From: Dehalococcoidia bacterium
Lineage (GTDB): Bacteria; Chloroflexota; Dehalococcoidia; Lucifugimonadales; JAGWBF01
Assembly: GCA_965219725.1 (NCBI GenBank)
Contig: CBDCOF010000002.1
Span: forward strand, 1,905,433 to 1,937,432
Reading direction: 5' to 3'
DNA: 32,000 bases
In this document: piece after piece, positions 6,009 through 29,816 of the stretch
Layout: each line of letters opens with the position of its first letter
Position numbering within the stretch: the first letter of the stretch is position 1
The notes under the pieces: model-generated
Told to the model about the DNA's origin: nothing
Databases searched by the model: none
Seen by the model: the letters and a program-made list of their open reading frames with translations, nothing else
Made by a program: the position numbers and the translations under genes

Positions 6009-6011
6009 AGA

Positions 6012-6338: not shown

Positions 6339-6371
6339 CGTGGAGGGGGTACATCCCTTTCCCAGCGGGAA

Positions 6372-6419
6372 ACCCCACCCCTGGATTCCGGCCTACGCCG
6401 GAATGACGGTTACGCAAAG
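6372..6419. repeat. Family-1 repeat, single half-element
   Basis: CCCCTGGATTCCGGC-CTAC-GCCGGAATGACGGTTACGCAAAG is nearly identical to 10327-10373. Confidence 0.8.
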
Positions 6420-6453
6420 GTCTCCTTCTATTCCTTGCTCGGCAAGCCTGGGC

Positions 6454-7698: not shown

Positions 7699-7757
7699 TG
7701 CCGCCTCCTGATAACATTTTCAGGTATGGGGCTACTGTTGGACTTGATTGGATTGAG

Positions 7758-7824
7758 AGGAGGGTTTCCCGGAAGGAAACTCTCCTATTGATAAGCCGCC
7801 AAGCGGTCTCGCCTGGCGGCTTAT
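7758..7824 (-). other. Two adjacent stable stem-loops between the LLM paralogs
   Basis: 7758-7786 has 12-bp arms with one mismatch (AGGAGGGTTTCC / GGAAACTCTCCT) and a 5-nt loop. 7791-7824 has 11-bp perfect arms (ATAAGCCGCCA / TGGCGGCTTAT) and a 12-nt loop. No U-tract follows on the minus strand. Confidence 0.4.
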
Positions 7825-7838
7825 TCCGTCATGGTGTC

Positions 7839-9107
7839 TTAGCTGTTGGATGGACCGGCCCCGTTGCCCACGGCAACTGCATCTTCGGTGGGCTTGCCGG
7901 TGGCGGGATTTACCTCAAATGGGCCGGGCAGGTCCAGTTCCTTGGCCATTTCCCGCACTGCCGGGATTACCTCTTCGCCCATGAGCCTCAGGCTGCGCAT
8001 GGAGTCTTCGTGGGTCATGGCTCCGTCGCCGTCCCAGAAGAAGATGCTGCCGGGCCGCAGGTACTCGAGGACGTGGCGTATCTTGGGTATTACCGTCTTG
8101 GGCGAGCCTACGGTGATGGTGTAGTTCTCAAGCTGGTCCTCGTAGGACCTCTGCAATGCTCCCCCGCGACCTGTGGGGGCCACAGACCTGGTGGGGAGCA
8201 CCCTGGTCCTGGAGGTGAGGCCGGGAAGCTGGATCAATGCGCTGTTCTGGATGCCCTCATTGCCTGCCAGGAAAGGGTTGCTGGGGCCCTGAACGTACTT
8301 TCTGCCTATCTCAATGGCCATCTGGTCGGTCTCATCCACGTGGACCTTCCACAGGTAGCCTATGTTCTGGGGTCCCGACTCGTAGCCCATCTCGGCGGCT
8401 GTCTCGTGGTATAGGTCGAAAGCCTGCCTGGTTGGACCTAGCTCTGTGGACAGCATTATGTAGGGGATGCGGTTCCTGGCAGCCCATAGCAAGGAGTCAC
8501 GGCTGATGACACCCGGCAGCCAGATTTGAGGATGGGGCTTCTGGTAGGGCCTCACCCAGGGGTTGACATAGCGGTACTGGTAGTGCTTGCCTTCCCATCG
8601 GAAGGGGCCTGGGTCCGTCCACGCCTTCACCACAAAGTCGTGGGCTTCCTGGAACCGCTCCCAGTTGTAGGGCGGGGGGATGTTGTGGGCCACGCTCTCG
8701 CGGCCCGTGCCGCGCACCCAACCGGATATGAGACGGCCGTGGGAGATCATATCTATCATGGCAAGCTGTTCCACCAGCCACAGGGGGTCGTCCCACAGGG
8801 GAAGGATGTTGCCCAGGAGGGCAATCCTGGCCTTCTTGGTTATCCGCGCCAAGATGGAAGCCTCCACGTTCATGGCGCCGCCCATGCAGAAGGGGGTGCT
8901 GTGATGCTCATTGAGCATCAGGCAGTCGAAGCCCACCTCTTCAGCGTAAATCTTCTCGTCCAGATACCTGTTGTACAGGTCTGCTCCCAGGTGTGCGTCA
9001 TATATATCGTTGCTGAGGTCCAGGTCCTGTATGGGTTTCCCCGTTGAGCCGAAGTACCCAGACTTCGGGTCCTGATAGGGTCGTTCCGTAAAGTACCCTA
9101 TGAGCAT
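7839..9107 (-). CDS. Luciferase-like monooxygenase, paralog 2 (tandem duplicate)
   Basis: Highly similar to 6454-7698, including a 65-aa identical stretch SGWVRGTGRES...YQKPHP. The track start GTG 9113 overlaps the SD GAGGAGG. ATG 9107 gives MLIGYFTERPYQ, the same N-terminus as paralog 1, with 5-nt SD spacing. Confidence 0.9.
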   Translation of the reverse strand: MLIGYFTERPYQDPKSGYFGSTGKPIQDLDLSNDIYDAHLGADLYNRYLDEKIYAEEVGFDCLMLNEHHSTPFCMGGAMNVEASILARITKKARIALLGNILPLWDDPLWLVEQLAMIDMISHGRLISGWVRGTGRESVAHNIPPPYNWERFQEAHDFVVKAWTDPGPFRWEGKHYQYRYVNPWVRPYQKPHPQIWLPGVISRDSLLWAARNRIPYIMLSTELGPTRQAFDLYHETAAEMGYESGPQNIGYLWKVHVDETDQMAIEIGRKYVQGPSNPFLAGNEGIQNSALIQLPGLTSRTRVLPTRSVAPTGRGGALQRSYEDQLENYTITVGSPKTVIPKIRHVLEYLRPGSIFFWDGDGAMTHEDSMRSLRLMGEEVIPAVREMAKELDLPGPFEVNPATGKPTEDAVAVGNGAGPSNS

Positions 9108-9177
9108 TGTCACCTCCTCATCTTGCTACCTATCCCACGGGCATAGCCAAGACCCGGCTGCCCGGGCCAAGACAACT

Positions 9178-11071: not shown

Positions 11072-14000
11072 TCATCCGCCGGACTCCCCAGGGATGGAAG
11101 TGGTGGCGGGCGTGAGGGTGACGGCGGTGCTGCTCAGCCATTGGTTGGCCTCGGCGTCGGAGGGGAGGAAGCGGGCCGACGGGAGCAGGCGCTCACCCCA
11201 TTCGCCGCTCGTGTCCTGCTGCTGGAGGGCGAACTCGACGCGGCCATCGGCCAGCAGCTGCGCGGTGATGCGTATCACAAGGCTTGGGTCGCCCTCGAGG
11301 ATGGTCAGCTGGGAACTGTTCAACCAGGTCCCGGCCGCGGCGCCAGAGGGGAAGAAGCGGGCCGACGGGAGCATTCGCTCGCCCCATTCGCCGTTGGAGT
11401 CCTGCTGCTGGAGGGCGAACTCGACGCGGCCATCGGCCAGCCTCTGCGCGGCGATGCGTACCACGAGGCTTGGGTCGTCCTCGAGGACGGTCAGCGAGGA
11501 ACTGTTGGACCATGTCCCGGTCGCGGCGTCGGAGGGGAGGAAGCGGGCGGTTGGGAGCATTCGCTCGCCCCATTCGCCGTTGGAGTCCTGCTGCTGTAGG
11601 GCGAACTCGACGCTGCCGTCGGCCAGCCTCTGGGCGGAGATGCGCAGCACCAGGCCTGGGTCGCCCTCAATGACGGTCAGGGGGGAACTGTTCAACCATT
11701 GCCCGGTAGCGGCGTCCGAGGGGAGGAAGCGGGCCGATGGGAGCATACGCTCGCCCCATTCGCCGTTCCGGTCCTGCTGCTGGAGGGCGAACTCGATGCT
11801 GCCGTCGGCCAGCCTCTGTGCGGAGATGCGCACGTCGACCCCGGAGGTCCCGCTGCCCACCGGCCCTTGGTCCGCACTGCCCACAGTCACTGCGACCTCG
11901 ATCTGCGCGGAGGCTGCCGGACTCCCGTCGTCGGTGGCGGTGACGGTCAGCGAGTAGACGTTGGTCCCGGCGGAACTGCCGGTCGTATCGAGGTCGCCGG
12001 TGCCGGCCAGGGTCAGGCTGCCCTCTTGGTCTATCTCGAACCCCGACGCGTCGGGTCCCGACAGCGACCACGTAACGGTGTCGCCCTCGGGGTCTTCGGC
12101 CTGGTACTGGGCGATGGGACTGTTGTGGTCTTCGTCCAGGGAGATTGCGGCATCTCCGGTGACCGGGCCTACCTCGTTGATGTTGGTGACCTGTACGTCA
12201 ACGCGCAGGGTGTCGGTCCGGCTGGGAGAGCCGTCGTCGGTGGCCCGTATCCTCACCCGGTAGGTGTTGCCTCGGAAGCCGGCGGGGTCCTCGTAGTCCG
12301 GCGACTCCTTGAAACTGAGAGAGCCATCCCCAGAGATTGTGAACTTATCGCCGTCCTCTCTGCCCACTATCTGGATGTCCCAGGATATAGCATCGTCGTC
12401 CGGGTCGTTAGCCGTGTAGGTGGCGACGGGGCCGGTCCCGTTCTCCTGGTACGATGGGTTGACTGGTCCTTCTATATTGGGGCGCCGGTTCGCGCCTCCT
12501 CCTCCTCCTCCGCCACCACCGCCGTTGTTGGTGGGAGAAGGGGGATTGGGCCCGGGGGTAGTGGTGGGGGTAGGGGTAGGGGTGGTAGGTGGGGGGGACC
12601 CGTCGCTGATGGTCACTGTAGCGCCGCTGGGCGAACCCGCCTCCACACCCGTGAGGGTGCCGAAACCCAGATTGATGGTCTCGTCCTCTGTGTCTGAGTC
12701 TGCGGTGGTAGTAATGGTGAAAGACTTGGAGTCATCTCCCGCGTTGAAGACTAGCTCGTTGCTCCCCGTCAGCCCAGTAATAGTATAATCGTCGGCTTCC
12801 GCATTACCGCTAATGGTTATCGGGACCGTCACCGTTGAGGTGGCCTGGGAGGACAGATTAACCTCGACCGTAATCGGATCTCCCTCCTCTTCACTGTAGG
12901 TTGAGGCCCCATAGCTCACCGTAATGGGCGCGCCGGTGTCGCTGGCTTCTATGGTGATGGTCTCCGGGTCGGTGGTGGTACTGCCATGCCTGGCCGTGAC
13001 CATGATGGTCTCTCTGGGCTCATTGTCATCGTCGTCCACCGCGGTGATGGTGGCCGCCGTGGACTCGCTCTGCCCGGTCCGGAGGGTGAGGGTATCGGAG
13101 GAAACGTTGTAGTCCTCCGCCCCCGCCGTGCTGCCGGTGAAGTCCAGGGTGATGGTCTGGTCTTCCGCAAAGGTGACGCCGTTGGTGATGGAGACGGTCA
13201 CTGTCGAATCTTCTCCCTCGGTGATGGAGTTGTGGGTGACTAACAGGCCGAACTCGGCGGTGTCGTTGTCCCGGACGATCACCGAGGCCGAGCGCGCGCC
13301 AGCAATCTGGTAGCGCGACGGAGCCGTAATGGTTGCTGTGATTACGCTGTTGTCCTTCACTACCGTATCGTTTTCCGTCTCTACCGTCAGGGTGGCAGTG
13401 TCGGCGCCTACTTCGAAAGTCACCGACGACGGTGCATCGTCGCTTACCACGGACCCGGGATCTGAAACCCTCACGTTCACGCTCAGTTCGTTCGCGGTGT
13501 CCCCGGAGCGGACCAGGGTGAAGGCCGCCGGTCTGCCCTCGTTGACCATGCCCCTGGATGGTGGTGCGATGGAGACTGTGGGACCTGTCACATCGTCGAC
13601 GTCGAAAATGTTCACTGTTATGCTGTTGTCCTCCATTGGCGATATGATGGTATCCCCAGTATCGTTCACCACCTCATGGGTCAACCTCACTCCCAGGTTA
13701 TCTTGATCGTCTTCGTCCTCGCCTGCGGTCACTATCATAGCCTGTGGCGAATCCCAATTGCCGTCATAGCTCCCCCCACATCGGCTGTTGCCAGTCTTGA
13801 GCTGAGCCGTTGACTCCACTGTTATACCCGTATTCGCCGTACCCCGCACAAATACCCACAAAGTTTCGTTACACCCAACATTGCCGAACTCCGCGGGGTT
13901 TTTGTCAAAATACACTCTGTAAGTGGCTGTTCCCTCCTCGCTAACGTTCAGGGTGGTGGGTTTCACTATCAGCTTGGGAGGCTCGTTGGTCTGGGCGGAG

Positions 14001-14110
14001 GCCGGATGGGCCAGGAGGAGCATGGCGGCAACCACGCCGGCGGCGCATACCGCGAGTATCCCGGCAAGGGCCAGGGTGAGCCGAGGGTGTCCAAGTAAGT
14101 TCATCATCAC
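11072..14110 (-). CDS. Large secreted/cell-surface protein: signal peptide, Calx-beta-like domains, P/T- and Gly-rich linker, two cadherin-like domains, four C-terminal 62-aa repeats
   Basis: 1012 aa. The N-terminus (LTLALAGILAVCAAGVVAAMLLLAHPASA-QT) is signal-peptide-like. Repeated acidic motifs (VDDDDNEPRE, TADSDTEDET) look like Calx-beta. DPDDDAISW...YRVRIRATDDG...VTNINE and DPEGDTVTW...TATDDG look like cadherin. Confidence 0.9.
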   Translation of the reverse strand: MMMNLLGHPRLTLALAGILAVCAAGVVAAMLLLAHPASAQTNEPPKLIVKPTTLNVSEEGTATYRVYFDKNPAEFGNVGCNETLWVFVRGTANTGITVESTAQLKTGNSRCGGSYDGNWDSPQAMIVTAGEDEDDQDNLGVRLTHEVVNDTGDTIISPMEDNSITVNIFDVDDVTGPTVSIAPPSRGMVNEGRPAAFTLVRSGDTANELSVNVRVSDPGSVVSDDAPSSVTFEVGADTATLTVETENDTVVKDNSVITATITAPSRYQIAGARSASVIVRDNDTAEFGLLVTHNSITEGEDSTVTVSITNGVTFAEDQTITLDFTGSTAGAEDYNVSSDTLTLRTGQSESTAATITAVDDDDNEPRETIMVTARHGSTTTDPETITIEASDTGAPITVSYGASTYSEEEGDPITVEVNLSSQATSTVTVPITISGNAEADDYTITGLTGSNELVFNAGDDSKSFTITTTADSDTEDETINLGFGTLTGVEAGSPSGATVTISDGSPPPTTPTPTPTTTPGPNPPSPTNNGGGGGGGGGGANRRPNIEGPVNPSYQENGTGPVATYTANDPDDDAISWDIQIVGREDGDKFTISGDGSLSFKESPDYEDPAGFRGNTYRVRIRATDDGSPSRTDTLRVDVQVTNINEVGPVTGDAAISLDEDHNSPIAQYQAEDPEGDTVTWSLSGPDASGFEIDQEGSLTLAGTGDLDTTGSSAGTNVYSLTVTATDDGSPAASAQIEVAVTVGSADQGPVGSGTSGVDVRISAQRLADGSIEFALQQQDRNGEWGERMLPSARFLPSDAATGQWLNSSPLTVIEGDPGLVLRISAQRLADGSVEFALQQQDSNGEWGERMLPTARFLPSDAATGTWSNSSSLTVLEDDPSLVVRIAAQRLADGRVEFALQQQDSNGEWGERMLPSARFFPSGAAAGTWLNSSQLTILEGDPSLVIRITAQLLADGRVEFALQQQDTSGEWGERLLPSARFLPSDAEANQWLSSTAVTLTPATTSIPGESGG
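11095..11836 (-). repeat. Four in-frame tandem repeats, 186 bp / 62 aa each, within the surface-protein CDS
   Basis: The landmark GCGGGC(C/G)G recurs at 11171, 11357, 11543 and 11729, giving an exact 186-bp period. The unit is RI-AQRLADG-(V/I)EFALQQQD-NGEWGERMLPSARF(L/F)PS-AA-G-W-NSS-LT. Confidence 0.9.
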
Positions 14111-14935: not shown

Positions 14936-17218
14936 ATGTTCCAACAGATTGGCAACTTCGCTGTCCGGTTCCGGTGGCCCATAATCCTCTTCTGGGCTAC
15001 CCTCTTTATCATTACCGTCCCCTTTGCGCCCAGGGTTGGCTCCCAACTCAAGGAGGGCTTCGGCGACGCGCAAACCGAGTCCAGGGAAGCCCTGGACATC
15101 CTCATCGAGGAACTGGGGGCCACCGAGTCCCTCATACCCCTGGCCTTTTCCAGCGATACCCTCACGGTGGACGACCCCCGCTATGCGTCGGAGATGAGGA
15201 AAGTCCTCGCCACCGTCGAGGAGATACCCGAGGTAGAGGCTGTCACCACCTTCTACAATTCCGTCAGTTCCAACCTGGTCTCCGATGATGGCCGCACCAC
15301 CCTGGCCCTGGTCTATCTGGACCTGGAGGTGGATGAGGTCCTGGACATCTTCCCGTCCCTGAATGAGCGGGTGAAGCTGGCCGGTTCCTCCAGCGAGGAG
15401 CTTGAGGTCTGGGCCGTGGGAGGCATCGCCATATTCTCCGACCTCAACGAGGCCTCGGAGAGGGACCTACGCCGGGCCGAGGCGGTGAGCCTGCCCCTGG
15501 TGCTGGTTGCCCTGCTAATAGTGTTCGGAGGGCTGGTGGCGGCGGGGCTTCCGGTGGCTATGGGGGCTATCAGCGTGTCCACATCCCTTGCCGGCCTCCT
15601 CCTCCTGGCCCAGGTCACGGACATGTCCATCTTTGCCCTCAACATCGTCTCATTCCTGGGGCTGGGGGTGGCGGTGGACTACTCCCTCTTGGTGGTAAGC
15701 CGCTTTCGCGAGGAATTGGCAAGGGGACGGGGGGGAGAAGGGGGTTATACGGCAGGCCAACAGGGGGTAACTCCCCGGGCGGCGGCCCGGCAGCAGGTTG
15801 ACGATGCCGTCCTCCGCACCGTTGCCACTGCGGGGAAGGCCCTCCTTTTCTCGGGAATCACGTCGGTGCTGGGGATGTCGGGCCTGCTCCTCTTTGAGTT
15901 TATGATGCTCCGGTCCATAGGGATGGGGGGGATGCTGGTCATGGTGGTATCCTTCCTCATAGCCATGACCCTGCTCCCCGCCATATTGAGCGTCCTTGGG
16001 CACAGGGTGGACCGCCTGTCCCTGGTCCGCCCGAGGCGGGAGGCCCAGGGGAGCGGGTTCTGGCGCCGCCTTGCCTCGTGGGTGATGAGACATCCCTTTG
16101 CGGTATCCGTCCCCCTTATCATCTTCCTGGCGCTGCTGGGCACGCCCTTCCTGGGGGTGAAGATTGGCGCGCCCTGGGCCAGCATCCTGCCCCCCGACGC
16201 CGAGTCCCGCCAGAGGGGGGAGGTCCTCTCCGAGAGGATGGGGCCGGGGGCCCTTTCTCCCATCGTGGTAGTCGTCCAGTCTTCCGAAGACATCCTCACC
16301 CCCGGCAACATCGGCGCGCTGTACGACTTCCTCCAACCCATCCAGGAGGACCCAAGGGTGGAAAGGGTGGAGAGCCTTGTCACCCTGGACCCGTCTCTGG
16401 ACAGGGCGGACTACCAGGCATTGTACGCCAGCCGGGGAATTTGGCCCCCCCAGGTGAGGCAGTTGGTGGGAGAGTTCGCCGCCGGCGGCACTACGGTGGT
16501 CCGCATCTACAGCAGGTTCTCGCCCACTGCCGATGAGACCAAGGAGTTGGTGGAGGATATACGCTCCGCCCCGGAGATAGACGGCATCCGCATCCTCGTG
16601 ACCGGGGAGACGGCGGCCCTGGAGGATGCCATTTCTGTGATGTACAGCGATTTTCCCAAAGCCGTGATTTACGTGATGGTAGCCATGTACCTGGCCCTGC
16701 TGGTGCTGTTCCGGTCGGTGGTACTGCCCCTCAAGGCGGTGATAATGAACGGGATGAGCATATTTGCCAGCTATGGCGCTCTGGTATTCATCTTCCAGCA
16801 GGGCCACTTCCAGGGACTGCTGGGCTTTCAGGCGGAGGGGTTCATAGAGCCTACCGTCCCCATCCTGTTGTTCGCCATAGTATTCGGCCTGAGCATGGAC
16901 TACGAGGTCTTTCTTCTCAGCAGGGTGAAAGAGATATATGACGAGACGGGAGACAATGCTGCGAGCGTCGCCCAGGGCCTAGAGAGGACGGGAAGGGTGA
17001 TAACAAGCGCCGCGATGATCCTGGTGTTGGTGGCCGCGTCCTTTGCCACGGCGGACATAGTGGTAGTAAAAGCCCTGGGCCTGGGCACGGCCATAGCGGT
17101 ATTCCTGGATGCTACGGTGGTGAGGGCCTTGCTGGTGCCCGCCCTGATGCGTATCATGGGCAACTGGAACTGGTGGTCCCCCGCTTTTCTGAGAAGGATT
17201 TTACCTGGAGGGGGCTGA
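14936..17218 (+). CDS. MMPL-family (RND superfamily) membrane transporter
   Basis: 760 aa with a duplicated 6-TM architecture and two extracytoplasmic loops. Typical MMPL patterns are present (GVAVDYSLLVVSRFREEL and GLSMDYEVFLLSRVKE). Confidence 0.9.
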   Translation: MFQQIGNFAVRFRWPIILFWATLFIITVPFAPRVGSQLKEGFGDAQTESREALDILIEELGATESLIPLAFSSDTLTVDDPRYASEMRKVLATVEEIPEVEAVTTFYNSVSSNLVSDDGRTTLALVYLDLEVDEVLDIFPSLNERVKLAGSSSEELEVWAVGGIAIFSDLNEASERDLRRAEAVSLPLVLVALLIVFGGLVAAGLPVAMGAISVSTSLAGLLLLAQVTDMSIFALNIVSFLGLGVAVDYSLLVVSRFREELARGRGGEGGYTAGQQGVTPRAAARQQVDDAVLRTVATAGKALLFSGITSVLGMSGLLLFEFMMLRSIGMGGMLVMVVSFLIAMTLLPAILSVLGHRVDRLSLVRPRREAQGSGFWRRLASWVMRHPFAVSVPLIIFLALLGTPFLGVKIGAPWASILPPDAESRQRGEVLSERMGPGALSPIVVVVQSSEDILTPGNIGALYDFLQPIQEDPRVERVESLVTLDPSLDRADYQALYASRGIWPPQVRQLVGEFAAGGTTVVRIYSRFSPTADETKELVEDIRSAPEIDGIRILVTGETAALEDAISVMYSDFPKAVIYVMVAMYLALLVLFRSVVLPLKAVIMNGMSIFASYGALVFIFQQGHFQGLLGFQAEGFIEPTVPILLFAIVFGLSMDYEVFLLSRVKEIYDETGDNAASVAQGLERTGRVITSAAMILVLVAASFATADIVVVKALGLGTAIAVFLDATVVRALLVPALMRIMGNWNWWSPAFLRRILPGGG

Positions 17219-17235
17219 TGTCTGGGATAATTGCC

Positions 17236-18003
17236 GCCGGCTATTTTCATAATAATTCCCCATGGCCTTGCGGGCCACATACGAGGATGAAAATGACGGC
17301 AGCCTCCCCACCGTCATTCCGGCGTAGGCCGGAATCCAGGGGTGAGGGGTGGGTGACTCGCAATGGCCGCCTACGTCGCGAGACCCTGGATTCCCGCTTT
17401 CGCGGGAATGACGGTGCTGGTGGGTGTCTATTTTCATGGTAATTGCCCCTGCCCCTGCGGGCCACATACGAGGATGAAAATGACGGCAGCCTCCCCACCG
17501 TCATTCCGGCGTAGGCCGGAATCCAGGGGGGGGGTGACTCGCAATGGCCGCTTACGTCGCGAGACCCTGGATTCCCGCTTTCGCGGGAATGACGGTGCTG
17601 GCGGGTGTCTATTTTCATGGTAATTGCCCCTGCCCCTGCGGGCCACATACGAGGATGAAAATGACGGCAGCCTCCCCACCGTCATTCCGGCGTAGGCCGG
17701 AATCCAGGGGGGGGTGACTCGCAATGGCCGCTTACGTCGCGAGACCCTGGATTCCCGCTTTCGCGGGAATGACGGTGCTGGCGGGTGTCTATTTTCATGG
17801 TAATTGCCCCTGCCCCTGCGGGCCACATACGAGGATGAAAACCCTATTTTCATAATAATTGCCCCTGCCCCCGCGGGCCGCATACGAGGATGAAAATCGT
17901 ACGGTTTCCCCACCGTCACTCCCGCGAAAGCGGGAGTCCACCGCCCCGCCCCTGGATTCCGGCCTACGCCGGAATGACGGTGGGCATCTATTTTAATAAT
18001 AAT
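17236..18003. repeat. Array of family-1 composite units: about 3.3 near-identical tandem copies (180-181 bp) plus degenerate flanking copies
   Basis: The unit start CTATTTTCAT recurs at 17242, 17428, 17609 and 17789. Each unit has three parts: ATTTTCAT..(40 nt)..ATGAAAAT; GTCATTCCGGC-GTAG-GCCGGAATCCAGGGG; and a 40-nt spacer followed by CCCTGGATTCCCGC-TTTC-GCGGGAATGAC. 17845-18003 is a diverged copy. Confidence 0.9.
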
Positions 18004-18111
18004 GGCATTATGACGAATTGGGGGCGCAGGTATGATGAGGCTTCATACCACCTGAAATGCAACGCTACCCGGCAAAAGCGGGACTAGAGGAAACGGGATG
18101 TTTCGGCTATA

Positions 18112-18639: not shown

Positions 18640-19325
18640 TCCAGACTCCAGAGGAACTTCTCAATAGTCTCGTTAACCTCCCGGTATCGTTCAAGCTGCA
18701 CGTAGTGGGTCGCATTATCGAAAATTGCCTTCTCCGACCCCTGAATCTTGTCGGCTAGATAATCTGTGTATTTTACAGGGGTCATCACGTCCTCAGAGCC
18801 GCAGACCATCTGGGTGGGCAGGGTTATCTTGCTGACCTCGTCCATCATGTCGAACTTGTCGCAGCAGAGCAGGTCGTTGTGCTTGACCGATGGGCCTACC
18901 TCTGCCGACCTTCGCATAATGACCTGCTGTATATCGGGTTCGACCCTGGAAAGCTCCGCTTTACGGTTCTCCAGCCAGTTGGCGGGGTCTTTCTCGCCGT
19001 CTTTACAGTCTTCCAGGTACTGGGGATGGACCCTGAGCTTGGCCCCCGTGCCCACCAGGATGATGCCCACCAATTCCTCGGGGTATTTAAGGGCGTAATG
19101 CTGGGTGATGGCCCCGCCCATGGAATGTCCGCACAGCACCACGTCTTTGTACCTCCGGGCGGCTATGAATCCCCGGACCCATTCCACGTAGCCCTCAACG
19201 CTGCTGCACGGCCTGCCGGTGGGGTGCCCTGGCAGGTCTATCCCTTTGGCGTTCCTGAAGTGGCGTAGTTGGTAATAAAATGAGAGACTTGAGTCCCCTG
19301 CGCCATGAATAAATACCAGTTTCAT
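18636..19325 (-). CDS. Alpha/beta hydrolase with a canonical catalytic triad
   Basis: 229 aa with HGAG near the N-terminus, the nucleophile elbow CGHSMGG, and a late ATHY region. It overlaps the convergent flavin reductase gene by 4 bp. Confidence 0.85.
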   Translation of the reverse strand: MKLVFIHGAGDSSLSFYYQLRHFRNAKGIDLPGHPTGRPCSSVEGYVEWVRGFIAARRYKDVVLCGHSMGGAITQHYALKYPEELVGIILVGTGAKLRVHPQYLEDCKDGEKDPANWLENRKAELSRVEPDIQQVIMRRSAEVGPSVKHNDLLCCDKFDMMDEVSKITLPTQMVCGSEDVMTPVKYTDYLADKIQGSEKAIFDNATHYVQLERYREVNETIEKFLWSLD

Positions 19326-19447
19326 CCGGTGTTCCTTTCTTTAGTTTAGGGTTGGGTGTGTAGTGTGGACCGCAAGGCCCAAAGTAGAATTCTATAATAA
19401 AATCTTCCGATTGGAAAGAGACTCAGGGGGAAGGACGCTCCCGTCGG

Positions 19448-19477
19448 TTGCAAACCTTTCTGCCTGTGGGCTATGAT
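19448..19477 (+). promoter_or_regulatory. Candidate promoter TTGCAA-18-TATGAT upstream of glcD
   Basis: The hexamers were read from the sequence. The ATG at 19508 is about 25 nt after the expected transcription start, with a GGGGGA SD. Confidence 0.4.
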
Positions 19478-19507
19478 GGGGGAACACTGATTACCTAGCC
19501 GGGGGAT

Positions 19508-20959
19508 ATGTTGGCACAGAATTGGCGAAGCATAATAAGGGACCTGGAAAGCATAGTAGGCAAGGAGCATGTAATCTATCACCCGGAAGACCTGCTGGTC
19601 TTTGAGTACGACGGCTCCATAGACAAGGCTACTCCCCAGGCCGTGGCGTTTCCCGCATCCACCGAGGAGACCAGCCGGGTCGTGGCCCTTGCCCATAGGG
19701 AGGGCGTTCCGGTGGTTGGGAGGGGTTCGGGCACCGGCCTGAGCGGGGGTGCCATAGCCAGCCTTGGCGGTATCCAGGTAGCCCTCACCCGCATGAGGCA
19801 AGTCTTGGAGATTGACACGACTAACCGGGTGGCAGTGGTCGAGCCGGGGGTGGTGAACCTGGACCTGGATACCTATGCCCACAAGTTCGGCCTACGCTAC
19901 GCCCCGGACCCCTCCAGCCAGAAGGCTTGCAGTCTGGGGGGCAACATTGCGGAGAACGCGGGAGGCCCCCACTGCCTGGCCTATGGGGTCACGTCCAACC
20001 ACGTGCTGGGTATGGAGGTGGTGCTGGAAGACGGCTCGGTATCCTGGCTGGGCGGCAAGACCGCAGAATCGCCGGGGTATGACCTCCGGGGCGTCTTCAT
20101 AGGCTCCGAGGGGACCTTTGGCATCGCCACCAAGATTGTGGTCCGGCTCCTGCCCATCCCCGAGTCGGTGAAGACCCTCCTGGGCGTGTTCCCGGACGTG
20201 GACTCTGCATGTACGGCTGTCTCCAGCACCATAGGCCAGGGCATCGTACCCGCCGCCATGGAGATAATAGACGCGGCATGTATCAAAGCCATCCTCAACG
20301 TGACCAAGGGAGTCTTCCCCGACGATGCAGGGGCGGTCCTTCTGGTAGAGGTGGAGGGACTGATAGAAGAGGTTGATGAACTGAGCGCGGAAGTTGAGGC
20401 CACCATGTACGACACTGGGGCTATGGAGGTCAAGATAGCCCTGGATGCCCAGGAACGGGAGCGGCTGTGGTCGGCCCGCAAGGGCGCTTTCGGAGCGCTG
20501 GGCAGCCTGGCCCCTAACTACTACCTGGTGGATGGCGTGGTCCCCCGGACCCGGCTCACCGAGACCCTACGAAGGGTTGCCGAGATCGGTGACAGGTACG
20601 AACTTCTCGTAGCCAATGTATTCCATGCCGGAGACGGGAACCTCCACCCTTGCATCGCCTTCGACGATAGGGAGCCGGGCGCCTCGGAGAAGGTGCTAGC
20701 GGCGGGAGAGGAGATGATGGGCCTGTGCGTGGAGATGGGGGGGACTCTTTCGGGAGAGCATGGAATCGGCCTGGAGAAGAAGGCATTTATGCCCCTTATA
20801 TTCACCCAGCAGGATATGGACACTATGATGAAGGTGCGCAGCGCCTTCTCCCCGGTTGGCATCTTCAATCCGGGCAAGATTTTCCCCGGCGGCCCCGAGT
20901 ACGACCAGGCTATGCAGCGCAGGGCCGTGTCCAGCGTAGGCCCGGGAGCGCACATCTAG
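19508..20959 (+). CDS. glcD: Glycolate oxidase subunit GlcD (FAD-linked oxidase)
   Basis: 483 aa with a PCMH-type FAD-binding domain (RGSGTGLSGG, GYDL) and the C-terminal GG--SGEHGIG-K motif. GlcE- and GlcF-like genes lie downstream. Confidence 0.9.
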   Translation: MLAQNWRSIIRDLESIVGKEHVIYHPEDLLVFEYDGSIDKATPQAVAFPASTEETSRVVALAHREGVPVVGRGSGTGLSGGAIASLGGIQVALTRMRQVLEIDTTNRVAVVEPGVVNLDLDTYAHKFGLRYAPDPSSQKACSLGGNIAENAGGPHCLAYGVTSNHVLGMEVVLEDGSVSWLGGKTAESPGYDLRGVFIGSEGTFGIATKIVVRLLPIPESVKTLLGVFPDVDSACTAVSSTIGQGIVPAAMEIIDAACIKAILNVTKGVFPDDAGAVLLVEVEGLIEEVDELSAEVEATMYDTGAMEVKIALDAQERERLWSARKGAFGALGSLAPNYYLVDGVVPRTRLTETLRRVAEIGDRYELLVANVFHAGDGNLHPCIAFDDREPGASEKVLAAGEEMMGLCVEMGGTLSGEHGIGLEKKAFMPLIFTQQDMDTMMKVRSAFSPVGIFNPGKIFPGGPEYDQAMQRRAVSSVGPGAHI

Positions 20960-20987
20960 CCCGCGCATATCCAATGGGAGGGAGAAG

Positions 20988-21341
20988 TTGACCACCCGCA
21001 CCGAAGAATATACTGCCATGAGCCGGAAGTTTTTCAGGGAAGCTGTGGAAGCCCTGGCGGAGGATGACCTGGTACAGGCTTCCGGGAAACTGTGGGACGC
21101 TGCCGCCCAGATGGTTGAGGCCGTTGCCGAAAGGCGCGGATGGCCTCACCACGACCACCGGGACCTGTACCTGATTGTAGAGAGACTTGCCGGTGAGACG
21201 GGAGATCGCAGGCTGATACACCTCTTCCAGTATGCCAGTGGCCTAGAGGGCAACTTTTATGAAAACTGGCAACCCATAGAATTTGTCCAGCGAGGGGTTG
21301 AGCAGATACGGGAGTTCATGGAGAAGATGGAGGCGCTCTAG
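20988..21341 (+). CDS. All-helical 117-aa protein, PaREP1 / HEPN-fold-like, paralog 1
   Basis: TTG start after GGGAGGGAGAAG. Pattern EAVEALAEDDLVQASGKLWDAAAQMVEAVAERRGWPHHDHRDLY...LEGNFYEN. One of three equally long tandem paralogs. Confidence 0.8.
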   Translation: MTTRTEEYTAMSRKFFREAVEALAEDDLVQASGKLWDAAAQMVEAVAERRGWPHHDHRDLYLIVERLAGETGDRRLIHLFQYASGLEGNFYENWQPIEFVQRGVEQIREFMEKMEAL

Positions 21342-21372
21342 TTTTCCGGTCAAGTCTGGTCTGGAGGGGAAA

Positions 21373-21726
21373 GTGACCACCCGCACCGAAGAATATACCG
21401 CCATGAGCCGGGAGCTTTTCAGGAAAGCTGTAGAAGCCCTGGAAGAGGATGACCTGGTACAGGCTTCTGAGAAGCTGTGGGGCGCTGCTGCACAGATGGT
21501 CAAGGCCGTTGCCGAAAGGCGTGGATGGCCTCACCGACAGCACCGAGACCTGTACCGGACGGTGGATAGGCTTGCTGCTGAGACTAGGGATGACGGTCTT
21601 ACACACCTGTTCGGGTATGCGAGTGAGTTGCATACCAACTTTTATGAACATTTGCGGCTCAGAGGCTTTATCGAGGAAGGGGTTGGGTATATACGAGAAT
21701 TAATAGATAAGCTGGAGGCACTTTAG
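21373..21726 (+). CDS. PaREP1 / HEPN-fold-like protein, paralog 2
   Basis: GTG start after GGAGGGGAAA, 385 bp after the paralog 1 start, and 117 codons long. The track ORF from ATG 21283 overlaps the end of paralog 1 in another frame and is not supported. Confidence 0.8.
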   Translation: MTTRTEEYTAMSRELFRKAVEALEEDDLVQASEKLWGAAAQMVKAVAERRGWPHRQHRDLYRTVDRLAAETRDDGLTHLFGYASELHTNFYEHLRLRGFIEEGVGYIRELIDKLEAL

Positions 21727-21757
21727 ATTTGCTGTCAATTCTGATTGGAGGAGGAAG

Positions 21758-22111
21758 TTGACTACCCGTACCGAAGAATATACTGCCATGAGCCGGGAGC
21801 TTTTCCAAAAGGCCGTGGAAGCCTTGGCAGAGGATGACCTGGTACAGGCTTCATGGAATCTGTGGGAGTCTGCGGCACGGATTGTTGAGGCCGTGGCTGA
21901 GAGGCATGGATGGCCTCACCGCGACTACCGGGACTTCTACCGGACTGTGGATAGGCTTGTTGCCGAGACAGGGGATAGCGGGATCGCATTCCTGTTCGCC
22001 TATGCCAATGGGTTGTATGAAAACTCCTTTGAAAACTGGCGGTCTAGGGGCTTTGTCCAGCAGGCAGTTGAGAGGATACGGGAGTTCATAGAGAAGATGG
22101 AGGCGCTTTAG
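21758..22111 (+). CDS. PaREP1 / HEPN-fold-like protein, paralog 3
   Basis: TTG start after GGAGGAGGAAG, 385 bp after the paralog 2 start, and 117 codons long. The C-terminus IREFIEKMEAL is close to that of paralog 1. Confidence 0.8.
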   Translation: MTTRTEEYTAMSRELFQKAVEALAEDDLVQASWNLWESAARIVEAVAERHGWPHRDYRDFYRTVDRLVAETGDSGIAFLFAYANGLYENSFENWRSRGFVQQAVERIREFIEKMEAL

Positions 22112-22120
22112 TTTTCCGTT

Positions 22121-23464
22121 ATGACATCGTTGTCGGATAAGCTGGTCGAGTCCCTGGAGAAGGATGCCCTGCTGCCCTTGGAGCAGCTGCCGGACTACGC
22201 AGTAGATGGGCTGGTCCCTGAGATGGTTGTTTTCCCCAGGGATGTGGGGTCCGTCTCCCAGGCCCTGTCTATTGTGTCCAGGCATGGGAAGAGGGTCGTG
22301 CCCTGGGGGGGCGGGACTCAGATGGCCCTGGGCAATGTGCCCGGTGGGGTCGACCTGGCACTGGGCCTCCGGCGGCTTGACCGCATCCTCTTCCATGAGC
22401 CTGGGGACCTGGTGGTCGGGGTAGAAGCCGGAGCAACCCTCAAGTCTCTCCAGGATGAGCTTGCCAAACAGGGACAGTTTCTACCCCTGATGGCCCCCAT
22501 CCCGTCCCGGGCTACCATTGGGGGAGTCCTGGCAGCCAACGCCGGCGGCCCCTTCAGGCTGGGCTACGGCGCTGCCAGGGACTGGCTCATAGGCATCAAG
22601 GTGGCGCACTCCGACGGCGCCGTCGCCAAAGCGGGCGGCAAAGTGGTCAAGAACGTGGCCGGCTATGACCTGAACAAGCTCTATACAGGCTCCCTGGGCA
22701 CCCTGGGCGTAATCGTGGAGGCCAACTTCAAGCTGGTCCCCCTGCCACCTGAGAGGCGGACAATTGTAGCTGCCTATTCCTCCCTGTCTGCCGCCCTGGA
22801 CGCAGCCCAAGGGCTTCTCCAACAGACTTCCATCCCCCAGGCGCTGCAAGTCATCAATCGAGGGATTATTGATAGGCTTCCGGGGCTGAACATCGCCGGT
22901 GATGGGGAGGCCGTCCTGCTGGCCCTCTTTGCAGGTAGAAGGTCGGCTGTGAAAAGGAAGGTGGATGACTCAACCCGGCTATTAAAGGGCGACGCCGCGA
23001 CTATAGACGACCTGGCCCAGAATGACGGCGACGGCCTATGGCAAGCCATAACCGACACGGGATGGGAAGAGGAGAGTCCACCCCTCCTTATGGCCAGGGC
23101 TATCTCCCTGCCGTCTCAGGTGGGGGATGTGTTGGCGATGGTTGATAGTCTCTCCTCGGGACAGGGGGTTATGCCGCCGGGGATTATGGCAGACGTGGGG
23201 GTGGGCCTGGTCCGCCTCGTGTGGTGGACGGAGGATAACATGCCCGACACGAGGGCAACCCTCGATGACCTGGTAAAGGGACTGCGCGACGGGATGCGTG
23301 GCTATGCGGGCCATCTCGTAATTGAGAGATGCCCGGTGGAGTTGAAACGCAGCATGGACGTATGGGGAGACTCTATGGAGGGTATGGATATTATGAGGCG
23401 GATCAAACATGAGCTAGACCCGGCAGGGATACTCAATCCGGGCCGCTTTGCAGGGAGAATATAG
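22121..23464 (+). CDS. glcE: Glycolate oxidase FAD-binding subunit GlcE-like
   Basis: 447 aa with a PCMH FAD-binding domain (GGGTQ, GG-VVKNVAGYDL-KL--GS-GTLG). No SD precedes the ATG, which lies 9 nt after the paralog 3 stop. Confidence 0.85.
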   Translation: MTSLSDKLVESLEKDALLPLEQLPDYAVDGLVPEMVVFPRDVGSVSQALSIVSRHGKRVVPWGGGTQMALGNVPGGVDLALGLRRLDRILFHEPGDLVVGVEAGATLKSLQDELAKQGQFLPLMAPIPSRATIGGVLAANAGGPFRLGYGAARDWLIGIKVAHSDGAVAKAGGKVVKNVAGYDLNKLYTGSLGTLGVIVEANFKLVPLPPERRTIVAAYSSLSAALDAAQGLLQQTSIPQALQVINRGIIDRLPGLNIAGDGEAVLLALFAGRRSAVKRKVDDSTRLLKGDAATIDDLAQNDGDGLWQAITDTGWEEESPPLLMARAISLPSQVGDVLAMVDSLSSGQGVMPPGIMADVGVGLVRLVWWTEDNMPDTRATLDDLVKGLRDGMRGYAGHLVIERCPVELKRSMDVWGDSMEGMDIMRRIKHELDPAGILNPGRFAGRI

Positions 23465-23466
23465 AA

Positions 23467-24789
23467 ATGAACGCAGGGACCAGGGTCCCACTGAATTTTG
23501 AGCCGGGGTTTGACGGGAAAGACATTCCCAGAGACGAGGACCTCTATCGCTGTGTCCATTGTGGCCTGTGCCTTAGCGCCTGCCCTACCTACGTCGAGCT
23601 AAATCTGGAGACCGAGTCTCCCAGGGGCCGCATCGCCTTTATGAAGGCGGTGAAAGAGGGCCGGCTGGGCATCAGTGATCGTGTAGCGTCTCATTGGGAC
23701 CTCTGCCTGCAATGCCGGGCCTGTGAAGCCGTGTGCCCCTCGGGGGTGCCCTTTGGCCGTATTATGGAATACAGCCGTGCTCAGGCCGTCCGGCATGGCA
23801 AGGTATCGGGGAAGATGAGGCTGGTTATGGCCCTGTTCCTGCGGGGCGCTCTGCCCCATCCGACCCGGCTCAGGCTGGGGGCATACCTGCTGAGGATGTA
23901 CCAGCGCTGGGGCCTGCGCAGCCTGGTACGGAAGTCCCGCCTGCTGAAGCTGCTCCCCGGCAACCTGGCTGACCTGGAGGCCGGGCTTCCCACCTTCGCC
24001 GATAAGTTTTTCGGGCCGGTCCCCCATGTATTCCCTGCCATAGGTGAAAGGAAGATGTCGGTAGGGCTTCTCTCGGGGTGTGTAATGCCCCTGGTCCAAG
24101 GGCCGACGATGGAGGCTGCGGTGCGGGTGCTCACCCGGAACGGGTGCGACGTGGCCGTTCCGATGGGCCAGGGCTGCTGCGGCGCGCTTAACCTCCATAG
24201 CGGGGATATTGAGTCGGCCCGCAGCATGGCGAAACACAACATTGACATCTTCCTGGAAGCGGGGGTAGAAAAGATCGTGGTGGCATCGGCGGGCTGCGGC
24301 TCCACCATGAAGGAATATGCAGAGCTGCTGAGGGATGACCCGGACTATCGGGACAAGGCGGAGCATTTCGGCAGCATCACCGTTGATGTGACAGAGTTTC
24401 TGGAGGGCCTGCCCTTCGACCCGCCCAGGGGGGCAATCAACCAACGGGTGACTTACCAGGACTCCTGCCACCTTGCCCACGCCCAGCGTATCACCGGCGC
24501 TCCCAGGACTATACTTAACTCCATACCCGGCCTGGAGTTGGTGGAGATGGAGAATGCAAGCAAGTGCTGCGGCGCTGCCGGCATATACTCCGTAACCCAG
24601 AGCAAGATGTCTCGGAGGCTCCTGGAGAGCAAGATGAAGAGTGTGGCCTCCACCGGGGCGGACACCCTGGTGACGGCAAACCCCGGCTGCATGATACAGC
24701 TAGAGACGGGCCTGCGTCTGGCCGGCATCCCGGGCCGGGTGTATCACGTGATAGATATACTGGACGAAGCCTACCGGAGGGAGAAGTAG
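23467..24789 (+). CDS. glcF: Glycolate oxidase iron-sulfur subunit GlcF
   Basis: 440 aa with two CxxCxxCxxxCP 4Fe-4S motifs (CVHCGLCLSACP and CLQCRACEAVCP) and two Cys-rich CCG domains (GCCGA, KCCGAAG). Confidence 0.9.
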   Translation: MNAGTRVPLNFEPGFDGKDIPRDEDLYRCVHCGLCLSACPTYVELNLETESPRGRIAFMKAVKEGRLGISDRVASHWDLCLQCRACEAVCPSGVPFGRIMEYSRAQAVRHGKVSGKMRLVMALFLRGALPHPTRLRLGAYLLRMYQRWGLRSLVRKSRLLKLLPGNLADLEAGLPTFADKFFGPVPHVFPAIGERKMSVGLLSGCVMPLVQGPTMEAAVRVLTRNGCDVAVPMGQGCCGALNLHSGDIESARSMAKHNIDIFLEAGVEKIVVASAGCGSTMKEYAELLRDDPDYRDKAEHFGSITVDVTEFLEGLPFDPPRGAINQRVTYQDSCHLAHAQRITGAPRTILNSIPGLELVEMENASKCCGAAGIYSVTQSKMSRRLLESKMKSVASTGADTLVTANPGCMIQLETGLRLAGIPGRVYHVIDILDEAYRREK

Positions 24790-24793
24790 CCCG

Positions 24794-25150
24794 ATCTTCA
24801 AGGTAGTAGCATTAACACTGATATTAGTCGCCGCGCTTTCCGGGTGCTCGGGGCCCCCGGGTCCCGAGGAGCAGGTGCGTACCTACTTGGATGCCCTTTC
24901 CGACGGTGATTCAGTCAGAATGGCCGGCGTGTTTACCCACGAGGTGCGCGACGCGATGAGCTTGGTCATATTGCCGGAAGTCTCAATTGATAACCTGGAC
25001 GTTGAGAAGGTATCCGAGACCGGAGATACCGCCGAGGTTATCGCTGAATACGATGCGGACTTTCCCGGACCGGGGCATACCAGGGTCAAGTTTACCCTGA
25101 CGAGAATAGATGGAGAGTGGCTAATCTCCAATGCTGAAGCTGTAGAATGA
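24794..25150 (+). CDS. Putative lipoprotein (NTF2/SnoaL-like small domain), with a non-canonical or mutated start
   Basis: The track lists 24875-25150 (GTG). The same frame is open from 24755 and encodes (I)FKVVALTLILVAALSGC|SGPPGPEEQ, a classic signal peptide plus lipobox. No ATG/GTG/TTG is in frame. ATC 24794 lies 7-13 nt after GGAGGGAGAAG. Confidence 0.5.
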   Translation: MFKVVALTLILVAALSGCSGPPGPEEQVRTYLDALSDGDSVRMAGVFTHEVRDAMSLVILPEVSIDNLDVEKVSETGDTAEVIAEYDADFPGPGHTRVKFTLTRIDGEWLISNAEAVE

Positions 25151-25353
25151 TTGGATGTCTGATATTTGTGAGCGCTATCCCCATCTTCTTTGGAGTGATA
25201 CTTCTCCTGGAGAACCTTGGCATCGCCGACGGCCTGGTGAGCAAGTATTGGCCTCTGATACTTATAGTCCTGGGCATCGGGGGCATCGTCAACGTGCTCA
25301 GGATCAGGGCAAGGTTCAGGGGCCGCTGGCCCCCGGACACGCTGGATAGATAA
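25147..25353 (+). CDS. Small membrane protein (two TM helices, LiaF/LiaI-type N-terminal-like)
   Basis: 68 aa. An ATGA overlap with the upstream stop suggests translational coupling. The hydrophobic pattern is IFFGVILLLENLG...YWPLILIVLGIGGIV. Confidence 0.6.
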   Translation: MIGCLIFVSAIPIFFGVILLLENLGIADGLVSKYWPLILIVLGIGGIVNVLRIRARFRGRWPPDTLDR

Positions 25354-28802: not shown

Positions 28803-29816
28803 GTGGACCCACTCTCACACATTCTCAGCTCTATATACCTGGTCGGACGGGTCTTTTGCCGTTCCGAACTCACGGCTCCCTGGGGTATCTCCTTACCTGC
28901 CCCTGACACTGAAGGCGCATCCTTCCACCTGATAGATGAGGGAAGCTGCTGGCTGAGCTTTGAGGGAGGGGGCCCTATCCAACTCTCCGCCGGCGACCTG
29001 GTCATCTTTCCCCAGAGCCGTCCCCACACTCTCGCCGACTCCCCGGCTACGACTCCCTTGCCCATGGAAGAGGTCATGGGAGTCGGGGGTAATGACGGCC
29101 CCATCCTTTATAATGGGGGTGGGCATAACGGGAGCGGGCATCACGGTGACGGGCATCATAGGGGCGATGGGACTCCCACCACCATAATCTGTGGTGTATT
29201 TGAGGGACAAAACGGGGGCGCTCACACGCTGTTTTCTCTTCTTCCGCCCCTGATATACGTCAAAGGCGGCCAGGGGGAAGCGGACGAGTGGTTGAGGACT
29301 ACCCTCAAGCTCATGGCCTCGGAGGCTGCATCCGCCAGGCCCGGATCAGGGACCATTGTAAGCCGCCTGGCGGATATACTGTTTATACAAGCCCTCCGGT
29401 CCTGGATGGAGAGCAAGGTTGGGGACGGCGAAGGCTGGTTGGCTGCCCTTCGGGACCCCCCGATTGGCATGGCCCTGGGCCACATCCATCAGGCGCCGGG
29501 GGAGGACTGGACTGTGGCTTCCCTGGCCGCCCAGGTAGGTATGTCCCGCTCTGCCTTCTCGGCCCGGTTTACCGCAATGGTGGGCAAGCCGCCCCTCCAC
29601 TACCTGACCCGGTGGAGGATGCAGTTGGCGGGAGACCTTCTGGTAGATGATGGCCTGAGCATTTCGGAAATAGCAGAGCGGGTGGGCTACCAGTCTGAGT
29701 CGCCCTTTTCCAAGGCATTCAAGCAGCATACGGGCATGGCCCCCGGCGCCTACCGACGCCACGCCAACGGGAGGACAAGCCATGCTCAGCGGAGGACTGA
29801 GGGGCAGGCGGCATGA
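28803..29816 (+). CDS. AraC-family transcriptional regulator with an N-terminal cupin-type sensor domain
   Basis: The C-terminal AraC HTH is recognisable (SLAAQVGMSRSAFSARF ... ISEIAERVGYQSESPFSKAFK). The N-terminus DPLSHILSS...FCRSELTAPWG is typical of cupin_6-type AraC proteins. I prefer GTG 28803 (GGAGG 8 nt upstream) over the track start 28677. Confidence 0.85.
   Translation: MDPLSHILSSIYLVGRVFCRSELTAPWGISLPAPDTEGASFHLIDEGSCWLSFEGGGPIQLSAGDLVIFPQSRPHTLADSPATTPLPMEEVMGVGGNDGPILYNGGGHNGSGHHGDGHHRGDGTPTTIICGVFEGQNGGAHTLFSLLPPLIYVKGGQGEADEWLRTTLKLMASEAASARPGSGTIVSRLADILFIQALRSWMESKVGDGEGWLAALRDPPIGMALGHIHQAPGEDWTVASLAAQVGMSRSAFSARFTAMVGKPPLHYLTRWRMQLAGDLLVDDGLSISEIAERVGYQSESPFSKAFKQHTGMAPGAYRRHANGRTSHAQRRTEGQAA

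Follow-up and report, generated by a model that had tools for sequence, protein, structure and literature searches.

A tandem triplet of PaREP1-family HEPN-type genes resident between glcD-like and glcE-like genes in a Dehalococcoidia genome

The stretch of DNA analysed here, hereafter the window, comprises 32,000 nucleotides of contig CBDCOF010000002.1 (positions 1,905,433 to 1,937,432, forward strand) in assembly GCA_965219725.1 of a Dehalococcoidia bacterium (Chloroflexota), and it carries, between the genes for a GlcD-like and a GlcE-like oxidase subunit, a tandem array of three open reading frames (ORFs). The analysis shows that these ORFs are real, selected paralogs that belong to a bacterial branch of PaREP1/PaREP8, a family of the HEPN superfamily (HEPN-T clade), and that unequal exchange and gene conversion among the copies drive the evolution of the array. 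The explanation that we prefer, at a probability of roughly 45%, is that the array constitutes a long-resident, operon-embedded HEPN-type module, formed by a canonical copy 2 and non-catalytic partners, and not a subunit of the enzyme.

Results

Layout and family membership of the array

An earlier note on this DNA, made from the sequence by eye, had described three ORFs of 117 codons with starts exactly 385 bp apart, each behind a Shine-Dalgarno (SD) sequence, between the GlcD-like and GlcE-like genes, and a direct reading of the sequence bears this out. Tandem Repeats Finder (TRF) reports a single array at 20977–22118 on the plus strand, with a period of 385 bp, 3.0 copies, 77% matches and a score of 1229, which excludes a chance origin, and DNA alignment agrees with it. 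The glcD-like stop codon is followed by a 28-nt spacer (20960–20987) containing the SD GGGAGGGAG, and then, on the plus strand and separated by spacers of 31 nt, by copy 1 (20988–21341, TTG start), copy 2 (21373–21726, GTG start, the mechanical ORF reaching further upstream, to 21283) and copy 3 (21758–22111, TTG start). The SDs ahead of copies 2 and 3 read GGAGGGG and GGAGGAGG, so that all three are of the GGAGG type announced in the note, and the identical bases that it had seen 3′ of copies 1 and 3 are present as well (TAGTTTTCCG). Overall identity between the paralogs, put at about two thirds, amounts to 67–69% at the amino acid level and 76–79% at the nucleotide level.

The assignment of the proteins to PaREP1 and the HEPN fold, proposed in the note from a residue pattern, is upheld by profile searches and by structural comparison. 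Against the Pfam model PF05942 the three copies score 66.0, 68.6 and 41.2 bits (E-values of 3.6e-18, 5.7e-19 and 1.8e-10), above the curated gathering score of 24.4 bits that served as the cut-off, with nearly full coverage of the model; no NCBIfam model was found for the array proteins. A search of Protein Data Bank (PDB) sequences with one copy as the query returned nothing meaningful, and a profile built from 32 family members reached 2jpu/2q00 with an E-value of 2.5e-4, aligning the DLxQAxEK and LH..F.E blocks. AlphaFold2 (AF2) models of copies 2 and 3 share the same five helices, with predicted local distance difference test (pLDDT) values of 96.6 and 96.8, respectively. In a Foldseek comparison against the PDB, 2q00 takes ranks 1 and 2, with a template modelling (TM) score of 0.76, and is followed by the HEPN domains of 2hsb, 1ufb, 1o3u and 1wol, sacsin (3o10) and HepT. 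The HEPN-type matches span TM scores of 0.6–0.83 (0.67–0.83 for the leading ones), the neighbours above 0.6 are all HEPN domains, and bundles of the hemerythrin and cytochrome types score poorly.

Hallmark residues and the canonical/degenerate triplet

In the literature, PaREP1/8 proteins form part of the HEPN-T clade, have no described function, are essentially archaeal and thermophilic, and occur as tandem gene repeats without linkage to minimal nucleotidyltransferase (MNT) genes (PMC3710099, PMC2701414, PMC3632139); the Arg of the HEPN Rx4-6H motif is missing from them and the His is kept (PMC3710099). Across 107 family members we find 16 hallmark residues: D27, Q30, S32, E33, K34, W36, R50, W52, H54, H57, D73, H87, N89, F90, Y91 and E92. 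The R-x4-H string to which the note had drawn attention does occur in all three copies (RRGWPH, RRGWPH and RHGWPH), but it does not stand as a conserved motif, position 49 being variable in the family (36 of the 107 members have Q there, 19 have R and 14 have A). Nor can RRGWPH be taken for the catalytic R-x4-H of HEPN domains, the conserved pair being R50/H54 (R-x3-H); in the AF2 model of copy 2, the conserved R50, H54 and H57 all fall within the loop that joins helices 2 and 3. H87, in the LH(T)NFYE block, is a His in 100 of the 107 members and aligns to LHVEGFHE of 2jpu, and since no Arg precedes it by 4–6 residues, it fits the published description of PaREP1/8.

Measured against these hallmarks, the three copies are unequal. 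Copy 2 is canonical and keeps 16 of 16, including H87 within LHTNFYE; copy 1 is mildly derived and keeps 14 (changes E33G and H87E); copy 3 is the most derived and keeps 9 (E33W, K34N, R50H, H57Y, H87Y, F90S and Y91F). The same canonical/degenerate pattern recurs, copy by copy, in the orthologs of two genomes syntenic with the window (loci L083 and L084). Elsewhere, 14–16 hallmarks, invariably with H87 among them, are found in each copy of eight further tandem arrays and in all the remaining glc-linked genes, and the two-copy array of L072 keeps 13–14 with H87 in place. Over the whole sample, a residue other than His at position 87 belongs almost always to one of the flanking copies 1 and 3 of the window lineage. 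Because the derived copies are still predicted to fold by AF2 and are still under selection, copies 1 and 3 look like non-catalytic paralogs and not like pseudogenes. Single polypeptides of about 240–290 aa with two PaREP1 domains are also present in the representative library (P0125–P0130, P0137 and P0188), and in several of them one half, or both, has another residue in place of the family His; two further cases, P0146 and P0176, are apparent frameshift artefacts. The existence of such natural two-domain fusions makes a physical pairing of tandem copies plausible.

Selection and sequence exchange within the array

The loci L083 and L084 share the synteny of the window, encode a GlcD-like protein 99% identical in amino acids to that of the window, and carry three copies that group by position with those of the window, so that the triplication predates the split of the three lineages. 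The ratio of nonsynonymous (dN) to synonymous (dS) divergence lies between 0.19 and 0.51 for all copies, and neutrality is rejected for copies 2 and 3 (p from 1e-3 to 6e-6). By copy, dN/dS is 0.26–0.51 for copy 1, which is 91% identical in amino acids to its L083 and L084 orthologs, 0.22–0.26 for copy 2, and 0.25 for copy 3, with a probability under neutrality of about 1e-5. Divergence itself is high, with dN of 0.04–0.15 in the copies versus 0.007 in glcD, that is, 6–20 times greater, and dS of 0.42–0.58 in copies 2 and 3 versus 0.08–0.16 in glcD and glcF, or 3–5 times that of the flanks. Sliding 200-bp intervals over 11.6 kb of synteny place a local divergence hotspot at about 21450–22150 on the plus strand, where identity to L083 and L084 drops to 76–85%; outside it, identity per interval is mostly 94–100%, with a few flanking intervals at 82–93%. 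The fact that synonymous sites are equally affected points to sequence exchange as the source of this divergence, and not to relaxed or positive selection.

The traces of such exchange can be followed within individual copies. Copy 3 of L083 and copy 3 of L084 are 100% identical from nucleotide 151 onwards and 83% identical over the first 60 to 90 nucleotides, a segment in which copy 3 of L083 is 95% identical to copy 1 of the same locus. Likewise, nucleotides 181–270 of copy 2 of L083 are 88% identical to copy 1 of that locus versus 70–72% to their own orthologs. A GENECONV-like permutation test is weakly significant (best p of 0.005, uncorrected). The idea that the family is diversifying, raised in the note, thus holds in that the copies change fast, but not in the sense of selection for change, dN/dS being 0.2–0.5 and the excess of divergence being synonymous as well; positive or diversifying selection was rejected, with dN/dS below 1 everywhere it was measured. 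The 3′ divergence that the note had observed is likewise real (65–78% identity in the 3′ half), but the near-identity that it saw at the 5′ end does not extend to the DNA level, where the 5′ part is 83–90% identical. Gene conversion alone was discarded as the source of this 5′ similarity: codons 2–40 show dS of 0.3–0.6 and dN/dS of 0.1–0.2, which argues that selection as well as conversion keeps the N-terminus.

In base composition the copies depart from their surroundings, against what had been noted by eye: their GC content is 0.54–0.57 and their GC at third codon positions (GC3) 0.56–0.67, compared with 0.62 and 0.72–0.76 for glcD, glcE and glcF. A lower GC3 than that of the enzyme genes is found in four other glc-linked loci too, five loci in all. 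A reading of the array as integron cassettes or as a MITE-like element was also rejected, the spacers being just 31 nt long, with no attC-sized element and no flanking inverted repeats seen, and a search of the whole window with Rfam at gathering thresholds returned nothing.

The glc-linked clade

The six closest homologs that were looked up, together with the JGI contig L092, all lie directly after glcD, in varied wider contexts. One copy follows glcD in L085/L086 and in L091, at least two to three copies in L087/L088, and two copies in L089/L090, where an unrelated GDPD gene then precedes glcE. Across the glc-linked loci, identity of GlcD to that of the window falls from 99% to 66%, and upstream synteny differs. 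In a neighbour-joining (NJ) tree of 112 members, computed without support values, the 15 glc-linked proteins group together to the exclusion of all others, with duplications inside three separate sublineages of this clade, and its archaeal sister group may be a long-branch effect. The amplification in place proposed by the note is therefore seen not once but as independent duplications in three lineages of the clade, and the survey of the glcD–glcE slot that it had called for does recover the linkage in other genomes, with from one to at least three copies, in one clade only. Because the glc-linked clade is monophyletic and always follows glcD, across 66–99% GlcD identity, its history fits one ancient insertion that was then passed on vertically together with the operon and amplified in place several times. 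Co-occurrence with glcDEF does not extend to the family at large, about 76 of 80 other loci being unlinked.

The wider family and its neighbourhoods

A search of 1.84 billion cluster representatives, clustered at 50% identity, yielded 2207 family clusters with E≤1e-3, or 1128 with the stricter E≤1e-10. In a census of species-representative genomes, 77 of the 80 best loci are bacterial, with 76 in metagenome-assembled genomes (MAGs) of Dehalococcoidia, SAR202 or other Chloroflexota and one in an Acidimicrobiia MAG, and 3 are archaeal; several chromosomes hold two to three separate family loci. The genes form 87 arrays, 76 of them single genes and 11 with two to four tandem copies. In 74% of the arrays the orientation is that of the upstream gene, and in 28 of 85 the distance to that gene is no more than 60 nt. 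No nucleotidyltransferase occurs among the 147 immediate neighbours, which represent 128 Pfam families, none of them dominant as a partner, and the candidate of a fixed partner gene was rejected on these figures and on BLAST clusters of the two neighbours on either side, all of which occur in at most five loci. The absence of an MNT partner, as the note had stated, is confirmed near the array and in the syntenic L083 and L084, where precomputed Pfam assignments on every neighbour include no NTP-transferase.

Minor recurrent neighbours do exist, namely TldD/PmbA, enoyl-CoA hydratase, luciferase-like monooxygenase, MT-A70 and N6/N4 methylases with HNH, and a retropepsin-like protease. Among the 80 best loci, only L061, L048 and L071 are near glc-like genes. 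The family members of L061 and L048 adjoin glcF-type genes, and L061 has a contiguous glcFED, encoding a GlcD with 66% identity, with the family gene convergent to it and no gene in the glcD–glcE slot.

Pairs of paralogous metallopeptidase genes of the TldD/PmbA type flank one to three PaREP1 copies in four loci (L003, 3990–8359; L013, 3622–7979; L017, 3929–8040; L020, 2798–6990), in a TldD–PaREP1–TldE layout that parallels GlcD–PaREP1–GlcE. In the NJ tree the copies linked to TldD/E do not form a clade of their own, and the tree shows neither a single event nor recurrence. The commonest small neighbour of PaREP1 genes is a retropepsin-like aspartyl protease of about 120 aa (PF13975/PF13650, with an ALVDTGA motif), present near them in five loci (L013, 5259–5639; L014, 3616–4029; L017, 5585–5941; L047, 6401–6763; L058, 6386–6763). 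Directly downstream of a few members lie DNA methyltransferase genes, for an N6/N4 methylase fused to HNH (L042, 6372–7769; L072, 6410–8047) or for MT-A70 (L033 and L070), which hints at occasional restriction-modification neighbourhoods for the family.

Flanking enzyme genes and other features of the window

The array is preceded immediately by the gene for a GlcD-like FAD-linked oxidase subunit of 483 aa (19508–20959, plus strand; PF01565 and PF02913), and is followed, 9 nt past the stop codon of copy 3, by genes for a GlcE-like FAD-binding subunit of 447 aa (22121–23464, plus strand; PF01565 and PF02913) and a GlcF-like Fe-S/CCG subunit of 440 aa (23467–24789, plus strand; two PF02754 CCG domains and a 4Fe-4S dicluster domain). 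Their scores against the NCBIfam equivalog models fall below the cut-offs (469 bits versus 567.9 for GlcD with TIGR00387 glcD, 152 versus 284 for GlcE with NF008439, and 285 versus 333 for GlcF with NF008434); domains and gene order fit, and the enzymes are therefore called GlcDEF-like, so that “glycolate oxidase” is a family-level call from sequence. A promoter and terminator scan of 19000–25200 gave no signal above shuffle expectation, and by itself shows neither independent transcription nor co-transcription. Since the successive spacers measure 28, 31, 31 and 9 nt, an SD stands at each start and there are no internal signals, the array is probably co-transcribed with glcDEF.

Among the enzyme genes, glcE has a dN/dS of 0.32–0.37 versus 0.03–0.12 for glcD and glcF, and it contains a mosaic patch (22850–23350) in which the window differs by 8–10% from L083 and L084, these two being 100% identical to each other. 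A second patch lies at 29028–29527, where L083 differs by 12–18% from the window and L084, which are 92–96% identical to each other. In two glc-linked loci an enzyme gene is frameshifted into two ORFs (GlcE of L089, 7696–9083, and GlcD of L091, 4516–5957), which points either to errors in long-read assembly or to decay of the oxidase into a pseudogene beside intact PaREP1 genes.

Further from the array, the intergenic region between the MMPL and flavin-reductase genes holds, at 17241–17896, a 181-bp tandem repeat in 3.3 copies (96% matches) and a 55-bp repeat in two copies, built on palindromes resembling repetitive extragenic palindromic (REP) elements (GTCATTCCGGCGTAGGCCGGAATC; GGATTCCCGCTTTCGCGGGAATGACGG). 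The surrounding block (17209–18057) is missing from L083 and shorter in L084, which indicates a variable insertion or a copy-number polymorphism. A 186-bp repeat in 3.7 copies (88% matches) lies at 11152–11833, within a cadherin/Calx-beta gene of 1012 aa (minus-strand ORF, 11072–14110), and the minus strand at 4278–9113 carries a gene for a tryptophan-halogenase-like flavoprotein followed by two paralogous luciferase-like monooxygenase genes, a set typical of SAR202/Dehalococcoidia paralog expansions.

Discussion

In the explanation that we prefer, a single copy would have entered the glcD–glcE spacer long ago in one Dehalococcoidia lineage, to be inherited with the operon and to undergo several independent in-place duplications; the window lineage now holds three copies. 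The proteins would then be a context-independent HEPN-type module that rides in the operon, and not subunits of glycolate oxidase, and their most plausible activity would be RNA binding or a non-canonical, metal-independent RNase activity with a role in stress or conflict. Copy 2, in which all family hallmarks are kept, would be the functional protomer, and copies 1 and 3 could be partners without catalytic activity, forming hetero-oligomers with copy 2 or modulating it. That the genes are passengers or modules is the reading favoured by the variable contexts of the family and by the contiguous glcDEF of L061, which lacks the gene.

Several points weigh against this explanation. The RNA-binding or RNase role is read from superfamily membership only, and to our knowledge no PaREP1/8 protein has a known biochemical activity. 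A canonical Rx4-6H at the HEPN position is not present in the array proteins or the family, and H87, as judged from the 2jpu alignment and the literature description, is a candidate counterpart of the HEPN catalytic His. The mean column identity across the family, at 59%, is unusually high for conflict genes; PADLOC gave no match to the array proteins or the family, and no family member was found on IMG/VR viral contigs. A glcD–glcE slot that stays occupied down to 66% GlcD identity would also be expected from a functional link to the enzyme, and the tree behind the single insertion is the NJ tree without support values.

Some of these points would suit a non-enzymatic helical bundle, with a ligand- or metal-binding or a structural role, that shares with HEPN proteins the fold and nothing else. 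Invariant polar residues are densely represented in the family (D27, E33, H54, H57, D73, H87 and E92), and their His, Asp and Glu side chains could make up a binding site; the motif Arg is missing, few conflict proteins would be expected to be so well conserved, and HEPN domains devoid of the motif have been suggested to act as binding domains (PMC3710099). However, every structural neighbour with a TM score above 0.6 is a HEPN domain, the hemerythrin and cytochrome bundles match poorly, and we regard this alternative as unlikely.

A factor that serves the GlcDEF-like oxidase in an accessory role, in assembly or in regulation, such as a chaperone or adaptor for GlcD and GlcE with specialised extra copies, would account for a monophyletic clade fixed between glcD and glcE with tight spacers in spite of GlcD divergence to 66% and changes in synteny, and for the purifying selection on the copies; the parallel layout between the paralogous TldD and PmbA/TldE genes at four other loci, and the L061 and L048 members beside glcF-type genes, speak in the same direction. 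Yet the neighbours are unrelated at about 76 of 80 other loci, and L061 has a contiguous glcDEF with an empty slot. Canonical copies share the same 16 hallmarks whether glc-linked or not, an argument for one and the same activity in all contexts. Moreover, the number of copies varies from one to at least three, L089 accommodates an unrelated GDPD gene in the slot, dN is 6–20 times that of glcD, and GC3 lies below that of the enzyme genes in all five loci. On balance, a dedicated oxidase factor strikes us as improbable.

The low probability that we attach to a selfish array of the toxin/antidote kind is much the same. Here, copy 2 would be a HEPN-type toxin that the degenerate copies 1 and 3 neutralise, and the array would be kept because its loss is harmful. 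Membership of the HEPN superfamily is compatible with this, and the literature allows that PaREP1/8 proteins may be toxins whose antitoxin is yet to be identified (PMC3632139). The family is multi-copy and dispersed, a few loci adjoin DNA methylase or HNH genes, evolution of the array is fast and driven by recombination, and the degenerate flanking copies are restricted to this lineage and conserved in its three genomes. Against it, a candidate antidote is missing from L085, from L091 and from the majority of the 76 single-copy arrays, every copy is canonical in other arrays, and neither defence and toxin-antitoxin (TA) libraries nor viral contigs contain a match. Still less probable, and on present evidence a long shot, is that the array forms a self-regulating HEPN heteromer made entirely of paralogs, copy 2 with 1 and 3 as pseudo-HEPN partners, whose expression is hard-wired to the flavoenzyme operon and which would act on the operon mRNA or on GlcD/GlcE assembly, a logic of which the TldD–PaREP1–TldE loci may be a second instance.

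The array is of interest beyond this operon. Few HEPN families are, like PaREP1/8, without a known activity, partner or phenotype, and this one has been treated as an oddity of archaeal thermophiles; it is large and highly conserved in Dehalococcoidia, and one of its clades has stayed in a metabolic operon through substantial divergence. The natural set of canonical and degenerate paralogs offers a concrete experimental handle on a HEPN family, and the series of one, two and three copies in a single slot provides a comparative test between a toxin, an RNA regulator and an enzyme accessory. For annotation, the loci are a caution that small unrelated genes can split glcD and glcE. The family to which the array proteins belong was already known, as was its trait of tandem arrays without MNT genes, and no new mechanism is required. 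The novelty lies in the bacterial expansion within Dehalococcoidia, in the canonical/degenerate triplet and in the long stay of a clade inside a metabolic operon, between the genes for two subunits, and a paper was found on none of these points.

Three known systems bear comparison with the array. With PaREP1/PaREP8 (PF05942; 2q00/2jpu, ORF c02003 of Sulfolobus solfataricus) it shares the Pfam match, the HEPN fold, the DLxQAxEK and LH..F.E blocks, the occurrence as tandem repeats and lineage-specific expansions, and the lack of MNT genes; the motif variant with His and without Arg may be shared as well, H87 of copy 2 being the candidate His. It differs in its bacterial host (Dehalococcoidia/Chloroflexota), which is neither crenarchaeal nor thermophilic, a descriptive and not a defining trait; in its position inside a metabolic operon, where it separates subunit genes and has been passed on as a clade; in the loss of the family His and other hallmarks from two of the three copies; and in having no ribbon-helix-helix (RHH) fusion. 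With the HepT/MntA type VII TA system it has in common the small HEPN fold, HepT structures 7bxo, 6m6w and 8xeh matching at TM scores of 0.59–0.66, and a multi-copy, dispersed occurrence in genomes, but it has no adjacent MNT gene and no canonical Rx4-6H, and it sits inside an operon instead of forming a two-gene module. Finally, the flanking genes share the domain sets and the order of GlcD, GlcE and GlcF with operons of the Escherichia coli glcDEFGBA type, from which they differ in that, throughout this clade, glcD and glcE are split by one to three PaREP1 genes.

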